Shown here in pieces: positions 43,144 through 50,552 of a DNA stretch of 64,000 nucleotides. Position 1 is the first letter of the stretch; the number at the start of each line of letters is the position of its first letter. A program made the position numbers and the translations under genes. Source of the DNA: Chitinophagaceae bacterium. Lineage in GTDB: Bacteria > Bacteroidota > Bacteroidia > Chitinophagales > Chitinophagaceae. The notes below the pieces were generated by a model that worked only from the letters and a program-made list of their open reading frames with translations, was not told where the DNA came from and did not search any database. The stretch spans positions 17,929-81,928 of the forward strand of contig DALYHN010000001.1 of the NCBI GenBank assembly GCA_031970875.1, in the 5' to 3' direction.

Positions 43144-44496
43144 TTATGCTTTCGGTTCATTCGGTCTCTGTGGGCCACGATTACCATCGGGTCTGTTCCC
43201 TTGTTGTGGTGGTCTTTGCTGTGGCGGTCTGTTGGGTCCGCCTTGTTGTGGCTTATTGCCTGGTTGTTGCGGACGTTGAGGTTGATTCGGTCTTTGCTGT
43301 TGTGGTCCGCGCGGTGCTTGTCCGCCACCTTGTTGCGGCGGTCTGTTGTCTGGTCTGCGATCACCACCTCCACGTTGTTCACGGTCACGATCGCGGCGCT
43401 TTTTGCTATTGCGTTCCAAACTGCGCAAGCTGATTTGTCCTACCACATCTACAAAAGCAGGTTCTGCTTCACGTGGTTTGCTGCTCACCACTTCTACGGG
43501 TTGCAGTTCTTCTGGTCTAATGCCTTGCGCATTCAAACGCTTGATTTCTTTCACACGCTGAATGGTGAGTGGGTATTGCTTATTGCTATCAGGCAACACA
43601 TACCACATCAGGTTCTTGAAAATATCTTTCTTGATGAGGTTGGCACGGCCACGAGCTGTTTCAATGTATTCGGCGTTATCTGGGAAATGCTGCAAAGCAT
43701 CCAGATAAGTATCCAGTTCATAGTTCAAACAACATTTCAAACGGCCACATTGTCCGCTCAACTTGGTTTGGTTAATGCTCAGGTTCTGATAACGCGCAGC
43801 CGTTGTGTTTACACTCTTAAAGTCATGTAACCAAGTGCTGCAACATAGTTCACGTCCGCAAGAACCAATACCGCCCACTTTGGCCGCTTCCTGGCGGATA
43901 CCAATCTGGCGCATTTCCACCTTTACTTTAAAGTCGGATGCGTATTGCTTAATCAGTTCACGAAAATCTACACGATCATCAGCGGTATAGAAGAAAGTCG
44001 CTTTCTTACCATCGGCCTGCAATTCCACTTCTGTGAGTTTCATCTGCAGGTTTAAGCTGCGGGCGATTGCGCGACTTCGTGCCAGCATTTCTCTTTCGCG
44101 TCCTTTAGACGTGCGATAGATTTCAATATCTCTTTCAGAAGCTTTGCGCAGGATTTTTTTCATCTCAGGGTTGAACTCATCCACGCCGCGCTTTTTCAAT
44201 TGAAGGCGTACTAGCTCACCGCTTAGATTTACTTCACCTACATCAAAACCACCCGCACCTTCTACGGTAACGAGTTCACCTTTTGCGAAATATTGTAAAG
44301 TTGGGTTACGGTAAAATTCTTTACGGCTTCCTTGGTTAAAGCTAATCTCTACCACTTTGCAGGAACTCTCCGGGTCGCTGAAAGGCAGGTTCATCAGCCA
44401 ATCGTGCACATTCAAGCGGTTACAACCGCCCGTACTGCAACCACCGTTGCTTTTACATCCATTGGGTTTCCCCGTTCCACAAGATCCACAGCCCAT
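43144..44496 (-). CDS. PSP1-domain (RicT/YaaT-like) protein with Cys-rich N-terminus and low-complexity tail
   Basis: 450 aa. The PSP1 core includes GDLVTVEG-like KGELVTVEGAGGFDVGEV and KEQKLSMKL-like segments, plus SGQCGRLKCCLNYE. The N-terminus is MGCGSCGTGKPNGCKSNGGCSTGGC. The last 86 aa are rich in R, G, P and Q. The position after holB matches the Bacillus holB-yaaT arrangement. Confidence 0.85.
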   Translation of the reverse strand: MGCGSCGTGKPNGCKSNGGCSTGGCNRLNVHDWLMNLPFSDPESSCKVVEISFNQGSRKEFYRNPTLQYFAKGELVTVEGAGGFDVGEVNLSGELVRLQLKKRGVDEFNPEMKKILRKASERDIEIYRTSKGREREMLARSRAIARSLNLQMKLTEVELQADGKKATFFYTADDRVDFRELIKQYASDFKVKVEMRQIGIRQEAAKVGGIGSCGRELCCSTWLHDFKSVNTTAARYQNLSINQTKLSGQCGRLKCCLNYELDTYLDALQHFPDNAEYIETARGRANLIKKDIFKNLMWYVLPDSNKQYPLTIQRVKEIKRLNAQGIRPEELQPVEVVSSKPREAEPAFVDVVGQISLRSLERNSKKRRDRDREQRGGGDRRPDNRPPQQGGGQAPRGPQQQRPNQPQRPQQPGNKPQQGGPNRPPQQRPPQQGNRPDGNRGPQRPNEPKA

Positions 44497-45929: not shown

Positions 45930-46166
45930 AGCGACGAAGTTAAAGGCTGCAATATTTTCTACTGATTTTTTTTAGCACAGTTGTGTGCTGACCTCATTAA
46001 GGTTGGTGATTAAGAAGTGCAAAGCATAGCTGCTATTACAGTTGCGTAATTACCTCTTCTTGCTGGGCATCTTGTCGGCAGGCATATAGGCAAAGCACTA
46101 GATAGATTGCTAAAAGGGTTGAGGCCATCTTAGTTTTTTTCTGAGACTTAAGTTCCAGTAAAAAGT

Positions 46167-46946
46167 TTAATGCCCAGAAAAAATATGATGAACGTAATCC
46201 TGCATAGCTACAAATGAGGCTTCCTGCTGCAGGCGAGTAGTTAGTTTGTATAACCTCTCTAAGAGTAAACCTGTACAATATCTAGTGGTATATGTGGGTA
46301 ACCCCAGATTTCTTACATCTGTGAACTCCCAAGGGTGGTAGTAAAGGCTTAGGTAGCTATCCTTACGCAGTGTTTGCAGTGCTAATTGTTGATAGAGCGA
46401 AAAGGGGAAGTTTTTAAGGCTCAACCAAAAAAGCGGTAGACGTAAACGATGGCTTACTGATGCAGGAATACGAAGCAAGCCTTGTTCTTTGTAAGTATTT
46501 CTTGGGAGGTGAAGATTATTGTATCGACCAGGTAGCCATGTAGGGTGTATGGATGCATCGTACTGATAGCCAGCATCAATAATATCTTGAACTGGCACTT
46601 GTTTCATGCGTGGCATTCTTAAGCCAGTAACAGGTTTTCCGGTGATGGCTTCTAATCTTAGTCGAGATGTTGCTAAGTCAGCTGTTTCAAATTTGCTGTG
46701 GTAATAAGTGTGCGAAGCAATTTCATGCTGAACCGATAGTGCTTTTATCGTGTCAGGATATTGATCTGCGAAGTTGGCTGTTGTGAAAAGTGTTGTTGTA
46801 ATGGAGTTATCCTGTAATAAAGGCATTAGTGTATCTAATCCCTTTTTACCTAATTCCATTTGAAGTGCTATAGGGATATTATTGCCATATTCTAGTGGCA
46901 TATCAAACTCTTCAACATCAAAGCTTAGTAAAACAACAGGCTTCAT
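46167..46946 (-). CDS. polysaccharide deacetylase (CE4/NodB-fold) family protein
   Basis: 259 aa with VLLSFDVEEFD (metal/acid motif) and HEIASHTYYH (H-x-x-x-H-like). There is no signal peptide. An ATGA overlap links it to the upstream GT2. Confidence 0.75.
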   Translation of the reverse strand: MKPVVLLSFDVEEFDMPLEYGNNIPIALQMELGKKGLDTLMPLLQDNSITTTLFTTANFADQYPDTIKALSVQHEIASHTYYHSKFETADLATSRLRLEAITGKPVTGLRMPRMKQVPVQDIIDAGYQYDASIHPTWLPGRYNNLHLPRNTYKEQGLLRIPASVSHRLRLPLFWLSLKNFPFSLYQQLALQTLRKDSYLSLYYHPWEFTDVRNLGLPTYTTRYCTGLLLERLYKLTTRLQQEASFVAMQDYVHHIFSGH

Positions 46947-47887
46947 AGATTGGTCTCTTTCACAATGTAATGAGGTCTTTGTTTACTCTGTATGAAGATT
47001 TTTCCAAGGTAAAGGCCAATAATTCCTAAAATCATTAATTGTACACCTCCAAGAAAAACAACTGTTACAATTAATGACGCCCAACCTGAAATGGGATGAC
47101 CATAGATGAAACTAAATAACACATAAGGGATATATCCTATAGAAAGTAATGAGAAAATAAATCCAAGATATATTGCTAGATAAAGTGGTCTTACTGTAAA
47201 GGAGGTTAATCCTTGTATTCCAAGCTTAAGAAGATTACTTGAGTTATACTTTGTGTCACCTGAATTACGTTGATTTACAGTATATGGTATGCCAATTTGC
47301 TTAAATCCAACCCATTTTATTAAACCTCTGAAGAAAGGGTTTTCTTCCTGTAAATCCTTAAGAACATTGACTACTTTTTTATCAATAAGGCGGAAATCAG
47401 AAGTGCCATCTTCTATTTCAAATTCTGATAGTACATTCAAAAGCTTATAAAAAATTTTTGAAGTAATTCTTTTTATTAAAGAAGCATGATTATTACCTTT
47501 TTCCCTATATGCAAAAACAATCTCCGCACCAGATTCCCAATGGTTAATCATTTTTGGTATTAAGCTTGGTGGATGTTGTAAGTCTGCGTCAATTGTAATT
47601 ATTATATCACCAAAAGAACTCTTCAGACCAGCAAATAATGCATTGTCTTTCCCAAAATTTCTGGATAGGTTTATATACTTGACCTTTGGATCCTCATCAG
47701 CCAGTTTTTTGATTTTAGCTAGTGTATCGTCAGTACTACCGTCATTTACAAAAATGATTTCGAAAGCATAATTAGTAGAAGCTAATACAGCACAGATTTC
47801 TTCGTAAATCGGTAGAATATTCCCCGATTCATTATGCGCGGGCAAAATCAGTTGAAGCGTTTTCTGCATTGTCTCTGGATTCAACAA
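46943..47887 (-). CDS. GT2 polyprenyl-phosphate glycosyltransferase (ArnC/GtrB/DPM1-like)
   Basis: 314 aa with ILPAHNESGNI, FVNDGSTDDT and DADLQHPP (DxD). Two C-terminal TM helices match the polyprenyl-P sugar synthase architecture. An alternative start is at 47869. Confidence 0.85.
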   Translation of the reverse strand: MLNPETMQKTLQLILPAHNESGNILPIYEEICAVLASTNYAFEIIFVNDGSTDDTLAKIKKLADEDPKVKYINLSRNFGKDNALFAGLKSSFGDIIITIDADLQHPPSLIPKMINHWESGAEIVFAYREKGNNHASLIKRITSKIFYKLLNVLSEFEIEDGTSDFRLIDKKVVNVLKDLQEENPFFRGLIKWVGFKQIGIPYTVNQRNSGDTKYNSSNLLKLGIQGLTSFTVRPLYLAIYLGFIFSLLSIGYIPYVLFSFIYGHPISGWASLIVTVVFLGGVQLMILGIIGLYLGKIFIQSKQRPHYIVKETNL

Positions 47888-49040
47888 ACTGGTGTGTCAG
47901 CAGTTTGAAAGTAATGAATATCCATGCAATCATGCAAGGAAATGCCTTAAGCGAGTATTTAATAACATAATTTTCCCTCAGGTATCTGGGGAATAAATCT
48001 GTAGGGGAGAAAACTGTCAACACCAAGACCATTATCAGTAAAGCAAACATTTGAATAGATGGCTTTGGGCCTGAGAGTACGTACCAGATAGCAAAACCTG
48101 TAACAGCAATGACATAGGTGGGCGACTCAGCAGAGGAACTGAAAATGACCAGACCAATCAGTAATTGAGCAAGATAAATGAGTTGGAAGCGGGTGTTTTG
48201 TAAGTGCTTGAAACGGGTAAGTGGTAACAATGTGAAAATAGCCGCGGGTAAAAGGAAGTACATATTACCCAACATATAATTGCCAGTTGTTCTGCGTACA
48301 AAACCCATAAAAGAGATATCCTGCATACCTGTGTAGAGATAAGTTGTAACGTTTTCCGTATTTTTTTCTACCAGAGAATGATACCAGTCCGTGTAAGATT
48401 GTACAACAAAAGCCGGGCTTGAGATAGCCATTGGCAATACAAATAAAACAATCGTCCAGCATGCGCAATAAGCAATAAAGCGACGATAGTCTTTGCTGAA
48501 AAAGATAAATGCCAAACCAACGATACCATAGATCTTAATCAATGTACCTGCAATAATTAACGCGGTAGCGAGTAGCTGTTTGTCTTTTTTAACCCATACA
48601 TAAGCAAGTACAATCCAAGCAGTAAGCATAGGATTGAATTGTACGTTCTGAATCGAAGTAAGGGTTTCAATCAGTGCAATCAGCAGTATAGTTTTTTTAC
48701 CCCAATCGCTTAATGGTAATTGCTGAATTGCATAAAATAAGCTGGCAATATTTGCCATTACCCAACAAACAACACCAGCTTTTACAGGTAAGAGTGCGAA
48801 AGGTGCTACCAAGACGGCAAATAACGGCCCGTAATGATTCTTATCTAAATATTCTGTAGGATAAGCTAGGTAGAGATTTTTCTGTTCCAGCGTATGCCAG
48901 AAAACCTGCTTGAAAATGAGAAAATTATTATAATAAGAAGGTCCCTGTATAGCACCAATGATAGTTGCTATCAATGGTATAATAAACCATAGCAACCTAA
49001 CATAATTAGGCTTAAGTATGGGGGTAAACAGCTTACGCAT
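47832..49040 (-). CDS. polytopic membrane protein, GT-C-like (DUF2029/GT87-like) candidate glycosyltransferase
   Basis: 402 aa with about 10 or more hydrophobic helices. The first loop, YLAYPTEYLDKNHYGPLFAVLVAPFALLP, resembles the acidic-residue plus Y-x-P loop of GT-C/DUF2029 proteins. Its 3' end overlaps the GT2 start. Assignment is by eye only. Confidence 0.5.
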   Translation of the reverse strand: MRKLFTPILKPNYVRLLWFIIPLIATIIGAIQGPSYYNNFLIFKQVFWHTLEQKNLYLAYPTEYLDKNHYGPLFAVLVAPFALLPVKAGVVCWVMANIASLFYAIQQLPLSDWGKKTILLIALIETLTSIQNVQFNPMLTAWIVLAYVWVKKDKQLLATALIIAGTLIKIYGIVGLAFIFFSKDYRRFIAYCACWTIVLFVLPMAISSPAFVVQSYTDWYHSLVEKNTENVTTYLYTGMQDISFMGFVRRTTGNYMLGNMYFLLPAAIFTLLPLTRFKHLQNTRFQLIYLAQLLIGLVIFSSSAESPTYVIAVTGFAIWYVLSGPKPSIQMFALLIMVLVLTVFSPTDLFPRYLRENYVIKYSLKAFPCMIAWIFITFKLLTHQFVESRDNAENASTDFARA

Positions 49041-49209
49041 TAAAGGGTTTTGGCACGCGAAGTTACGTTTTCAGCAAGGTTTCACACATAGATTATAAAC
49101 AAATTCGCTTTATTCTCTGAGGCTTCAACAGGCCAAAGCCGCTATACTGACTAACACTTCAATGAAAATCAATTCATATTGGCGAATGTTTATATGTATG
49201 ATAAGTTGT

Positions 49210-49241
49210 AAAAAAACACCCGCATATGCGGGTGTTTTTTT
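49210..49241 (-). terminator. intrinsic terminator downstream of the peroxidase gene
   Basis: The hairpin ACACCCGC-ATAT-GCGGGTGT is flanked by A6 and T6 runs, so it is potentially bidirectional. Confidence 0.8.
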
Positions 49242-49859: not shown

Positions 49860-50552
49860 CTATATCGTCCAGGCAACCGTAGCAATGCTGAGTTGGGTAT
49901 TGGGAACAGCCAAGATGGTTGCACCACATGCTTCTAGCGTTGCACCCGTAGTGATGACATCGTCTACTAATAATACATGTTTACCTTGTATGGCTGCAGA
50001 ATCCCACACCCGAAAGCTACCTTGCATATTCTGCCACCTACTCAAACGGTTTTTATTGGTTTGAGAACTAGTATGCATCGTACGTTCCAATACATGGGTA
50101 AGTACAGGCTTCTGCCAAACCTCGCTAATGCCTGTACAGATTTCAGCTGTCTGGTTATAGCCACGGATATGCAGTTTTTTAGCATTTAATGGAAGCGGTA
50201 GTAATACATCGATGCTTGCATATAAAGGTGATTCGGCCAGCATATAGCCAATATATCTGCCTAAGAGTTTTCCTATTATTGGTTGTTGTTTGTATTTCAA
50301 TTGCTGCATGAGCTCTTGTAACAAACTCTCTTTGGTATAAAAATAGCCGGCACCTGCTTGTACAATGGGTATGCGGCCGATAAAGCTCGCGGCTACCGGA
50401 TTATTACTTTGTTGAAAGAAACTTGTTTCAGGTAAACTTAGTTGACATCTTGCGCAAAGACTTGTATCATATGGTAGCGCATCTGTTCCGCAACCGAAAC
50501 AATAGTGCGGAAATAATAATGAACGTAAATCTTGAAGCAAGGTGAGTGGCAT
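49860..50552 (-). CDS. comF: ComF-family phosphoribosyltransferase-domain protein
   Basis: 230 aa with an N-terminal CxxC...CxxC zinc ribbon (CFGCG...CARC). The PRTase loop is VLLVDDVITTGATL. Confidence 0.8.
   Translation of the reverse strand: MPLTLLQDLRSLLFPHYCFGCGTDALPYDTSLCARCQLSLPETSFFQQSNNPVAASFIGRIPIVQAGAGYFYTKESLLQELMQQLKYKQQPIIGKLLGRYIGYMLAESPLYASIDVLLPLPLNAKKLHIRGYNQTAEICTGISEVWQKPVLTHVLERTMHTSSQTNKNRLSRWQNMQGSFRVWDSAAIQGKHVLLVDDVITTGATLEACGATILAVPNTQLSIATVAWTI

Follow-up and report, generated by a model that had tools for sequence, protein, structure and literature searches.

The window, a 64,000-nucleotide stretch from a Chitinophagaceae bacterium, carries three overlapping genes on the minus strand, which encode a polytopic membrane glycosyltransferase with a GT-C fold, a GT2 polyprenyl-phosphate sugar synthase and a CE4 deacetylase. 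The first-pass annotation had placed the open reading frames at 47832-49040, 46943-47887 and 46167-46946, where we found them as well. For GT2 the most likely start is the ATG at 47869, the alternative being the TTG at 47887, and the gene is called as 308 aa in public data (P0270, L102). With the ATG start, GT2 overlaps the GT-C gene by 38 nt; the overlap between GT2 and CE4 is 4 nt (ATGA start/stop). The features of the locus are as follows.

47832..49040, minus strand: GT87-like GT-C polytopic membrane glycosyltransferase, 402 aa, predicted periplasmic transferase
46943..47869, minus strand: GtrB-type GT2 polyprenyl-phosphate sugar synthase, 308 aa, with two C-terminal TM helices
46167..46946, minus strand: predicted cytoplasmic CE4 (+DUF3473-like) de-N-acetylase, 259 aa, PF01522
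46950..47700 (limits approximate), minus strand: foreign recombination tract inside the GT2 gene, residues ~55-305
45984..49209, no strand: presence/absence indel comprising the cassette and its own intergenic DNA, relative to the empty site of the same-genus genome G001
49041..49209, minus strand: upstream non-coding region of the cassette, presumed promoter/leader, between the gpx terminator and the GT-C start codon
49210..49234, minus strand: gpx intrinsic terminator, CACCCGC-ATAT-GCGGGTG then T7, read from the sequence

Between holB and gpx, genomes of the genus either have or lack the cassette, as a clean indel of 3.2 kb. At the empty site of G001 these two genes are ~100 bp apart, and G001 follows the window as far as 45983, the match resuming at the terminator of gpx, the upstream gene. 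This terminator, which is conserved in the empty site, parts gpx from the cassette. A sigma-70/terminator scan returned no more sites than in shuffled sequence, Bacteroidota promoters being outside its consensus, and did not list the gpx terminator.

The GT-C protein passes Pfam PF09594 (GT87) with 88.4 bits against a cut-off of 25 (E=8e-25) and has no match to Pfam PMT or PMT_2, in agreement with the initial call of a DUF2029/GT87-like rather than ArnT-like (GT83) transferase. Separate PMT_2 proteins are encoded elsewhere in the genome. When the AF2 model (pLDDT 94.1, pTM 0.93) was searched against the PDB with Foldseek, the top match was PimE (9dm5/9dm7, TM 0.64-0.67), the GT87 polyprenyl-P-mannose:PIM4 alpha-1,2-mannosyltransferase of Mycobacterium. 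The best 21 matches all have the GT-C fold; they include ALG6, ArnT, ALG3/9/12, GPI-MT-I, PMT, EmbB and OST, with PIGU as the third best. The GT-C fold on which the earlier reading depended is therefore supported by model and matches, with a TM-score to ArnT of only 0.30-0.42. A phmmer search of the PDB with the single sequence found nothing; with the family profile, PimE was the sole match (E=1.8e-6, ~16% identity).

In PimE, the donor-phosphate residues Y92, Q163 and K195 are essential, and so is the catalytic Asp, the D58N variant being dead (PMC12041525). The family profile aligns these three residues to Y70, Q134 and K169 of the GT-C protein, which are conserved in 82, 80 and 81 of 83 sequences, respectively. 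In place of the catalytic Asp in JM1, a helix that begins at residue 38 in the AF2 model, stand N38 (73/83) and N39 (77/83), the equivalence of N39 and D58 being set by helix position and spacing (±3 residues) and not by superposition; across the 83 sequences, positions 36-43 hold essentially no D or E. Neither D58 nor its partner Y62, four residues on, is thus kept in the family, which has N38-N39 and F43, with E305 and T308 in the places of PimE W319 and H322. The subfamily shows no variation at D66 or E305, and the cavity is lined by invariant polar residues of the kind that is typical of an enzyme. The same genus also has, as a separate gene, a canonical GT87 paralogue marked by 'SGDD' and 'WEHH' motifs; the copy compared is the full-length one of G001, that in the window's own genome being broken by the contig end. 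Judged by these alignments, the cassette GT-C is a distinct GT87 subfamily that lacks the canonical Asp yet retains the donor-phosphate residues of PimE, and its catalytic details probably differ from those of PimE.

GT2 passes Pfam PF00535 (118 bits, E=4.5e-34) and carries a DxD motif ('DADLQHPP') as well as two hydrophobic C-terminal helices. The polyprenyl-phosphate glycosyltransferase type with two C-terminal TM helices, as first annotated, is confirmed by full-length similarity to GtrB: in the PDB the match to GtrB sll0501 spans residues 11-311 with E=1.2e-74, compared with 9e-33 for ArnC. The assumed likeness to ArnC, by contrast, has to be revised to a GtrB/PgfS-like type, as the score against the NCBIfam ArnC equivalog (NF007986) is 133.6 bits, far below the cut-off of 529. 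PgfS (NF047588) is the best-scoring named family, of which the protein is likewise not a member (288.4 bits, cut-off 500). The PpgS equivalog gave 34 bits against a cut-off of 370, and the NCBIfam GlcN_PG_synth model did not match. A GtrB-type sequence does not reveal which sugar is loaded, because relatives make Und-P-Glc and Und-P-GlcNAc alike; the linked CE4 gene is the sole pointer to an N-acetyl sugar.

The deacetylase passes Pfam PF01522 with 38.2 bits against a cut-off of 23.1 (E=1.6e-9), and a DUF3473 match stays below threshold. It begins with 'FDVEEFD', as expected for the FDVEEF type to which it had been assigned, and its catalytic set is intact: D10, E12, E13, D15, H79, H83, R110, P112 and H204 are invariant or nearly so in 52 cassette-linked homologues. 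The catalytic strand starts from residue 4, which leaves no room for a signal peptide. With the AF2 model (pLDDT 95.8), 49 PDB structures matched by fold at E<=1e-3, and CE4 enzymes make up nearly the whole set. HP0310 (TM 0.70) and PuuE-type barrels rank ahead of ArnD (8t0j), which comes ninth with a TM-score of 0.56 and is matched neither by phmmer (E<=1) nor by the family profile (E<=0.01). The protein is thus not an ArnD orthologue, and the first-pass annotation's comparison to ArnD does not extend to the sequence level. The best named CE4 subfamily is TIGR03006 (XrtA-system polysaccharide deacetylase), with which it has a DUF3473-type C-terminal part in common, though it is not a member (63.7 bits, cut-off 276.2).

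To survey related loci, a search was seeded with an 18-sequence alignment; the residue conservation given above for the GT-C protein comes from 83 sequences. The GT-C, GT2 and CE4 genes are adjacent, co-directional and in that order in 70 of the 80 species-level Bacteroidota loci, which bears out the proposal that the three genes are one module. This grouping is far beyond chance, and the genes form an evolutionarily coupled unit. A permuted order (GT2, GT-C, CE4) was found in which all three still stand together, four family members are GT-C–GT2 fusion proteins, and genome G005 has a non-homologous short GT2 between GT-C and CE4.

The whole cassette had also been described as AT-rich and thus possibly acquired by transfer. 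Our composition check upholds this for GT2 alone, whose GC3 of 0.248 (z = -2.8) is the lowest among the window's 42 ORFs; CE4 deviates less (z = -1.2), and the GT87-like gene is unremarkable (z = -0.3). With GT2 as the sole compositional outlier, acquisition of the whole cassette is ruled out as a conclusion from base composition. Compared with the near-conspecific contig L102, DNA identity falls from 0.98 to ~0.5 and then returns to 0.85-0.92, the rest of the cassette outside the GT2 tract being conserved at 90–98%, and the resident GT2 allele has a GC3 of 0.386 against 0.248 here. By these sequence comparisons, a foreign recombination tract of ~750 bp has replaced most of the GT2 gene. The AT-richness of GT2 is accounted for by this intragenic allele replacement and not by arrival of the whole cassette, so that transfer and recombination at the locus are real, but in another form than was suggested. 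The foreign allele is present on 8 contigs, and no relatives above 60% identity were found for it. The behaviour of the cassette is that of an accessory locus for surface glycans, open to exchange.

We lean towards the view that the three genes are a self-contained operon which decorates the envelope with a lipid-carried aminosugar, and the best reading of its order of events, which we consider fairly probable, is the Arn-like logic of loading an N-acetyl sugar, deacetylating it and transferring it outside the membrane. Going by homology, GT2 would act at the cytoplasmic face and load undecaprenyl phosphate with an N-acetyl-hexosamine taken from a UDP-sugar. The cytoplasmic CE4 would then strip the N-acetyl group to yield Und-P-hexosamine, a step we infer from the gene coupling, from an active site that is intact and from the missing signal peptide. 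The lipid-linked sugar would be flipped by a component outside the cassette. No flippase gene lies within the cassette, and no recurrent small membrane protein that might be a flippase candidate was found near the 80 loci among ORFs >=100 aa; a GtrA-like gene is present elsewhere in the genome. Finally, the GT87-like GT-C would move the hexosamine to an envelope acceptor at the periplasmic face; fold and donor-binding residues are seen in the model and the alignment, and from them we infer the chemistry. The loss of an Asp that is essential in PimE counts against this reading.

Precedents for the pathway logic, by analogy, are Arn, Flm and PpgS/Rv3779, although the cassette proteins are not orthologues of ArnC/D/T, FlmF2/NaxD/FlmK or GpgSDF. 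In the Arn system (Enterobacteria, Pseudomonas, Burkholderia; L-Ara4N on lipid A), a GT2 with two C-terminal TM helices likewise loads an N-acylated aminosugar, a cytoplasmic CE4-fold enzyme exposes the amine and the periplasmic transfer is the work of a GT-C enzyme; ArnC, ArnD and ArnT all turn up in the fold or sequence searches with the cassette proteins. The cassette differs in that its GT-C is GT87/PimE-like (TM-score to ArnT 0.3-0.4) and in that it has neither ArnA/ArnB sugar-nucleotide genes nor an ArnE/F flippase. Francisella FlmF2/NaxD/FlmK and Bordetella LgmA/LgmC/LgmB (GalN or GlcN on lipid A) resemble it in carrying on Und-P a hexosamine, not Ara4N, which is deacetylated and then transferred by a GT-C enzyme, and in Francisella the GT2 and GT-C genes are adjacent too. 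However, their transferases are ArnT (PmrK) homologues while that of the cassette is GT87-like, and the deacetylases NaxD and LgmC belong to the YdjC family while that of the cassette is a CE4, for which the Pfam scan gave PF01522 and DUF3473 only, hence outside the YdjC type. The mycobacterial/corynebacterial PpgS (Rv3631)-Rv3632-Rv3779 pathway, in which GT2-made polyprenyl-P-GalNAc is deacetylated and a GT-C enzyme moves GalN to arabinogalactan, belongs to another phylum and envelope, and the cassette GT2 is far below the PpgS cut-off. Its deacetylase and flippase are 'as yet unidentified', whereas the cassette encodes a deacetylase in the operon. In Corynebacterium the GalN modification is a phage receptor, which fits the accessory, allele-swapping behaviour of the cassette.

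The leading candidate acceptor would be LPS (lipid A or core). For lipid A, and for the polymyxin resistance that the first-pass annotation linked to such modifications, the GT9/GT4 neighbours in Flavobacteriales would be weak support. Against LPS count the absence of kdsB linkage in ~89 loci and a LysM-bearing family member which points elsewhere; kdsB was also not found in the incomplete G000 assembly. It is possible, though on the doubtful side, that the same pathway serves another acceptor: the glycans of periplasmic or outer-membrane glycoproteins (as in Pgf-like systems or Bacteroidota O-glycosylation), peptidoglycan, or a polysaccharide, capsular or otherwise. The top NCBIfam match of GT2 is indeed PgfS of the streptococcal protein-glycosylation system, but at 288 versus 500 it is well under the cut-off. 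The LysM domain, at the C-terminus of the protein, and the NlpC/P60 gene beside the cassette would favour an acceptor other than LPS, and the closest actinobacterial analogue decorates arabinogalactan; however, the LysM fusion was seen just once, and the NlpC/P60 neighbour in Chryseobacterium alone. Flavobacteriales cassettes, moreover, sit amid GT9 (heptosyltransferase family), GT4 and GT2 genes, neighbours which were seen in this order only and score below curated cut-offs.

A Gtr-like decoration without an amine is unlikely. GT2 would here make Und-P-glucose or Und-P-GlcNAc, which the GT-C would pass on unchanged, and CE4 would have a separate job such as removing O- or N-acetyl groups from the acceptor glycan or from some other intermediate in the cytoplasm. 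The closest solved relative of GT2 being GtrB, a Und-P-glucose synthase, agrees with this, as do the diversity of CE4 substrates and top fold matches of peptidoglycan/PuuE type, not ArnD. However, the CE4 is cytoplasmic, is translationally coupled to GT2 via the 4-nt overlap and has stayed beside its partners where the gene order was permuted or GT2 replaced, an association that is difficult to account for if its substrate is not the GT2 product.

In two three-gene operons, gpgSDF of P. aeruginosa (GlcN-phosphatidylglycerol) and hexSDF of C. difficile (aminohexosyl glycolipid), a HexNAc is attached to a membrane lipid by a glycosyltransferase, which is joined by a deacetylase that frees the amine and by a polytopic membrane protein; what results is an envelope lipid, cationic or zwitterionic, as final product, not as carrier. 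GpgS is a GT4, GpgD a COG3233 protein and GpgF a UPF0104 flippase, while HexS is of MGDG-synthase type and HexF is MprF-like (PMC12713373, PMC10128005); homology to the cassette, with its GT2 synthase and GT87-like third gene, is ruled out. That the lipid-linked aminosugar is in like manner (or by GPI-like logic) the end product or acceptor, with GT2 and CE4 making a cationic glycolipid which the GT-C-fold protein flips, escorts or extends with a second lipid-linked sugar, is very unlikely: the missing catalytic Asp and the high rank of the non-catalytic PIGU and of GPI mannosyltransferase I speak for it, but neither the synthases nor the flippases of these operons are homologous to the cassette proteins, GT2 is of a bona fide polyprenyl-phosphate glycosyltransferase type whose products are donors, and the GT-C retains the donor-phosphate and invariant polar cavity residues.

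Within the Arn-like reading, a bolder and rather doubtful version would make the GT-C the founding member of a GT87-derived subfamily without catalytic Asp and with an invariant donor-site Glu, which puts a cationic hexosamine onto an anionic acceptor (such as a lipid A or core phosphate). The Asp would then have been lost because such an acceptor needs no general base, and recombinational GT2 swaps between near-identical strains would change the sugar shown, giving Bacteroidota a minimal exchangeable serotype/phage-receptor switch.

Envelope aminosugar decorations control surface charge, cationic peptide/polymyxin resistance, innate immune recognition and phage adsorption; the characterised examples come from Proteobacteria and Actinobacteria, none from Bacteroidota. 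In the literature searched we found nothing relevant on GT87/DUF2029 in Bacteroidota and no biochemical or genetic work on any cassette member. New are the Asn-Asn GT-C subfamily, the holB/gpx presence/absence indel and the foreign tract confined to GT2. If the Arn-like reading is true, the cassette provides an operon-encoded deacetylase for a Und-P-HexNAc pathway, the step that is unidentified in the mycobacterial GalN pathway. A GT-C without the canonical catalytic Asp would be a natural variant of mechanistic interest, and the clean empty site together with the intragenic GT2 replacement makes a small, well-defined example of how a surface-glycan locus diversifies. The cassette occurs in at least 561 species-level genomes. 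Among its carriers are genera that can be cultured and manipulated genetically (Flavobacterium, Chryseobacterium, Pedobacter, Sphingobacterium) as well as two fish pathogens, F. psychrophilum and F. columnare, which makes the prediction directly testable.

The cassette consists of three minus-strand ORFs, which were confirmed in the window sequence at the positions where the first-pass annotation had placed them. On one side it borders holB and a PSP1/RicT gene; gpx, comF and radA lie on its opposite side. Going by the names of close homologues, the organism belongs to the Chitinophagaceae. The features are as follows:

47832-49040, minus strand: GT-C ORF, 402 aa; PF09594 (GT87), 88 bits, over the Pfam threshold
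46943-47887, minus strand: GT2 ORF; PF00535, 118 bits, over the Pfam threshold
46167-46946, minus strand: CE4 ORF, 259 aa; PF01522, 38 bits, over the Pfam threshold; sub-threshold match to DUF3473
49210-49234: clear intrinsic terminator after gpx

Public gene calls and the near-conspecific metagenomic contig L102 place the GT2 start at ATG 47869 (308 aa). Read from there, the GT2 gene shares 38 nt with the GT-C gene; GT2 and CE4 overlap by 4 nt (ATGA). As this terminator follows gpx, the upstream region of the cassette is its own. Just 3' of the CE4 stop lies a putative gene of 30 codons (46036-46128, minus strand), which begins like a lipoprotein (MASTLLAIYLVLCLYAC...) and is 99% identical to L102 at the DNA level. 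The PSP1/RicT-family protein (43144-44496, minus strand) ends in a low-complexity stretch of about 100 residues in which Gly, Pro, Gln and Arg abound.

Species-representative genomes were scanned and yielded at least 561 loci that encode GT-C relatives. The best 80 of these all belong to Bacteroidota and include Chitinophagaceae, Flavobacterium (also F. psychrophilum and F. columnare), many Chryseobacterium, Pedobacter, Sphingobacterium, Mucilaginibacter, Saprospira, Emticicia and Bacteroidales MAGs; in 70 of them, GT-C, GT2 and CE4 are adjacent in this order on a single strand. The cassettes that hold the nearest relatives of the window GT2 have the permuted order GT2, GT-C, CE4. In a family-level relative (G005), a non-homologous GT2 of 248 aa without TM helices (L013:7513-8259) sits between GT-C and CE4 in place of the GtrB-type GT2; here the loader enzyme has been exchanged for a non-homologous one. 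Furthermore, four family representatives (P0149, P0171, P0182 and P0268; 629-644 aa) are single polypeptides with an N-terminal GT-C and a short C-terminal GT2. The conserved order, the permutation, the GT2 replacement and the fusions each argue independently for a joint function of the three activities. When the phylum was sampled evenly, the GT-C was found at E<=1e-25 in 21 of 401 genomes and 15 of 180 genera, sometimes in two copies, and a library of 50%-identity representatives contained 1403 family members at E<=1e-3. The cassette is a genuine operon, widely conserved but so far uncharacterised, for a kind of pathway that is already known; our literature search found no paper on it. Four genomes of one genus (G205, G285, G329 and G425) each encode two cassette-type GT-C copies, about 45% and about 38% identical to the query, which suggests two parallel decoration systems.

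The GT-C protein was modelled with AlphaFold2 on an alignment of 83 sequences, and the model is very confident (pLDDT 94.1, pTM 0.93). Its top Foldseek match in the PDB is the mycobacterial GT87 archetype PimE (TM 0.59-0.67, probability 1.0), followed by PIGU, ALG6, ArnT, ALG9, GPI mannosyltransferase I, ALG3, PMT and EmbB. Since all of these have the GT-C fold, the model bears out the fold proposed in the first-pass annotation, which had named its absence as grounds for abandoning the assignment. When the family profile was searched against the PDB, PimE was the sole match (E=1.8e-6). By residue count in this profile alignment, Y70 (82/83 sequences), Q134 (80/83) and K169 (81/83) align with PimE Y92, Q163 and K195; these PimE residues are reported to bind the phosphate of the donor and to be indispensable for activity (PMC12041525).

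What the first-pass annotation did not anticipate is that the cassette GT-C appears to represent a GT87 subfamily without the catalytic Asp. In PimE, the catalytic base is D58 at the tip of the juxtamembrane helix JM1, and D58N is dead (PMC12041525). The profile alignment begins beyond D58; JM1 in our model comprises residues 38-51, where the family has Asn-Asn (N38 in 73/83, N39 in 77/83 sequences) and acidic residues are all but absent from positions 36-43. We equate N38/N39 with D58 from their place in the helix and their spacing (±3 residues), not from a superposition. PimE W319 corresponds to E305, an invariant Glu (81/83), and PimE H322 to T308. The same genus also encodes a canonical GT87 paralogue, whose JM1 opens with 'SGDD' and which shows the PimE-like motif 'SPVAWEHHYG'; the cassette GT-C therefore belongs to a distinct subfamily and is not merely a divergent PimE. 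We speculate that the exchange of the catalytic Asp for Asn-Asn, together with the Glu at the W319 position, might suit a donor sugar that is cationic, an anionic acceptor without need of a general base, or both. ArnT, which has a phosphate acceptor, keeps its catalytic Asp (PMC12041525). Equally speculative is D66 as an alternative base; it is the nearest invariant acid of the first periplasmic loop (77/83) and is followed by Y70. The canonical paralogue of the window's own assembly lies on contig C226 (L101:1237-2349, minus strand) and ends at the contig edge; a full-length copy is present in the same-genus genome G001 (L109:1498-2919). It adjoins a HAD-like hydrolase and another polytopic membrane protein, with no linked GT2 or CE4.

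The top solved relative of the GT2 over its full length is GtrB, a polyisoprenyl-phosphate glycosyltransferase from Synechocystis (E=1.2e-74), with ArnC (about 1e-32) and dolichol-phosphate mannose synthase far behind. The protein has a DxD motif and two C-terminal TM helices. Among the NCBIfam models, PgfS came first with 288 bits (cut-off 500) and ArnC second with 134 bits (cut-off 529); because both scores are under the cut-off, the GT2 falls outside both equivalogs. Its sequence identifies it as a predicted polyprenyl-phosphate sugar synthase, which is an assignment of type, not of sugar.

The N-terminus of the CE4 protein opens with the catalytic strand (MKPVVLLSFDVEEFD), which leaves no space for a signal peptide, and the enzyme is therefore cytoplasmic. 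Its motifs are intact, as D10, E12, E13, D15, H79, H83, R110 and H204 are invariant across 52 cassette-linked homologues. The best fold match of the model (pLDDT 95.8) is H. pylori HP0310 (TM 0.70), followed by M. smegmatis 3rxz and PuuE-type barrels. The enzyme is not of the YdjC type. ArnD (8t0j) ranked ninth among the fold matches (TM 0.56) and was not detected at the sequence level with either the single CE4 sequence or the family profile; the CE4 shares fold class and cellular side with ArnD but was rejected as its orthologue.

The best-supported reading, which we hold to be reasonably probable, has four steps. The GT2 would form Und-P-HexNAc at the cytoplasmic face, the cytoplasmic CE4 would convert it to Und-P-HexN, a flippase not linked to the cassette would translocate the product, and the GT-C would move the hexosamine onto an envelope acceptor. 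Our analysis establishes the types and folds of the enzymes, the intactness of their active-site motifs, the side of the membrane on which the CE4 works and the coupling of the genes in evolution; that the sugar is N-acetylated, that the steps follow in this order and that the GT-C performs the transfer is what we infer. The same scheme is known from ArnC/ArnD/ArnT, Francisella FlmF2/NaxD/FlmK, Bordetella LgmABC and the mycobacterial PpgS/Rv3779 GalN pathway, for which the deacetylase and flippase are still unidentified; in Corynebacterium the modification acts as a phage receptor. The description as an Arn/Lgm/Flm-like module hence stands with respect to pathway logic, but not as orthology, as all tests for membership in the Arn, Flm, Lgm and PpgS/Rv3779 families failed at the orthologue level. 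The gpgSDF and hexSDF operons (PMC12713373, PMC10128005) have the same layout of synthase, deacetylase and membrane protein; however, their proteins are not homologous to those of the cassette, and the lipid made there is the end product.

As acceptor, LPS is a possible but somewhat doubtful candidate. Flavobacterium and related Flavobacteriales have the cassette amid a GT9 (heptosyltransferase-family) gene, a GT4 gene and several GT2 genes, and in Chryseobacterium a GT4 gene directly follows CE4; these neighbours all score under curated cut-offs, and the pattern is limited to one order. The Chitinophagaceae contexts are unrelated housekeeping genes, and no kdsB was found within 6 kb of about 89 loci. 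Non-LPS acceptors taken together are about as plausible as LPS. A single cassette-type GT-C with a C-terminal LysM domain (P0269, 656 aa) and an NlpC/P60 neighbour in one genus point weakly to peptidoglycan. A search of the assembly that contains the window (94.5% complete, 428 contigs) found no match to CMP-Kdo synthetase (PF02348), although G004 of the same genus encodes one; a gap in the assembly is the probable reason.

Two further features go beyond the first-pass annotation, namely a clean presence/absence site and an intragenic swap of the GT2 allele. The same-genus genome G001, with flanks 94-99% identical, has an empty site with a holB-gpx gap of about 100 bp. As it matches the window up to 45983 and again from the gpx terminator, the cassette is a clean indel of about 3.2 kb, at which neither mobility genes nor flanking repeats were found. 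G002 and G003, also of the same genus, carry a more distant cassette at another place (GT-C 33% identical). G004 has the cassette at the same site, with sharp changes in DNA identity at about 45,980 and 49,280; its flanking proteins are 92-98% identical to those of the window (comF 83%), and its CE4, GT-C and GT2 are 83%, 71% and 55% identical. In L102, the flanks (97-99%), CE4 (98%) and GT-C (90%) are close to the window, but the GT2 is just 57% identical. DNA identity to L102 drops from 0.98 to about 0.5 across roughly 46,950-47,700 and then recovers, and the window allele retains the resident first ~27 and last 11 residues. The L102 allele is 74% identical to that of G004 and has a normal GC3 of 0.39. 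The window allele has the lowest GC3 among the window's 42 ORFs (0.248, z = -2.8) and no relative above 60% identity in 5.8 billion proteins searched; it is not an assembly artefact, since the identical protein is recorded on eight contigs. The cassette had been described as more AT-rich than its neighbours, which is true of the GT2 but not of the GT-C gene with its ordinary composition (z = -0.3). The AT-richness thus traces to an exchange, within the gene, of the enzyme that loads the sugar. The nearby comF-like phosphoribosyltransferase gene (49860-50552, minus strand) is itself variable between same-genus genomes (83% aa and about 0.72 DNA identity), and the adjacent radA and gpx are far better conserved (92-97% aa).
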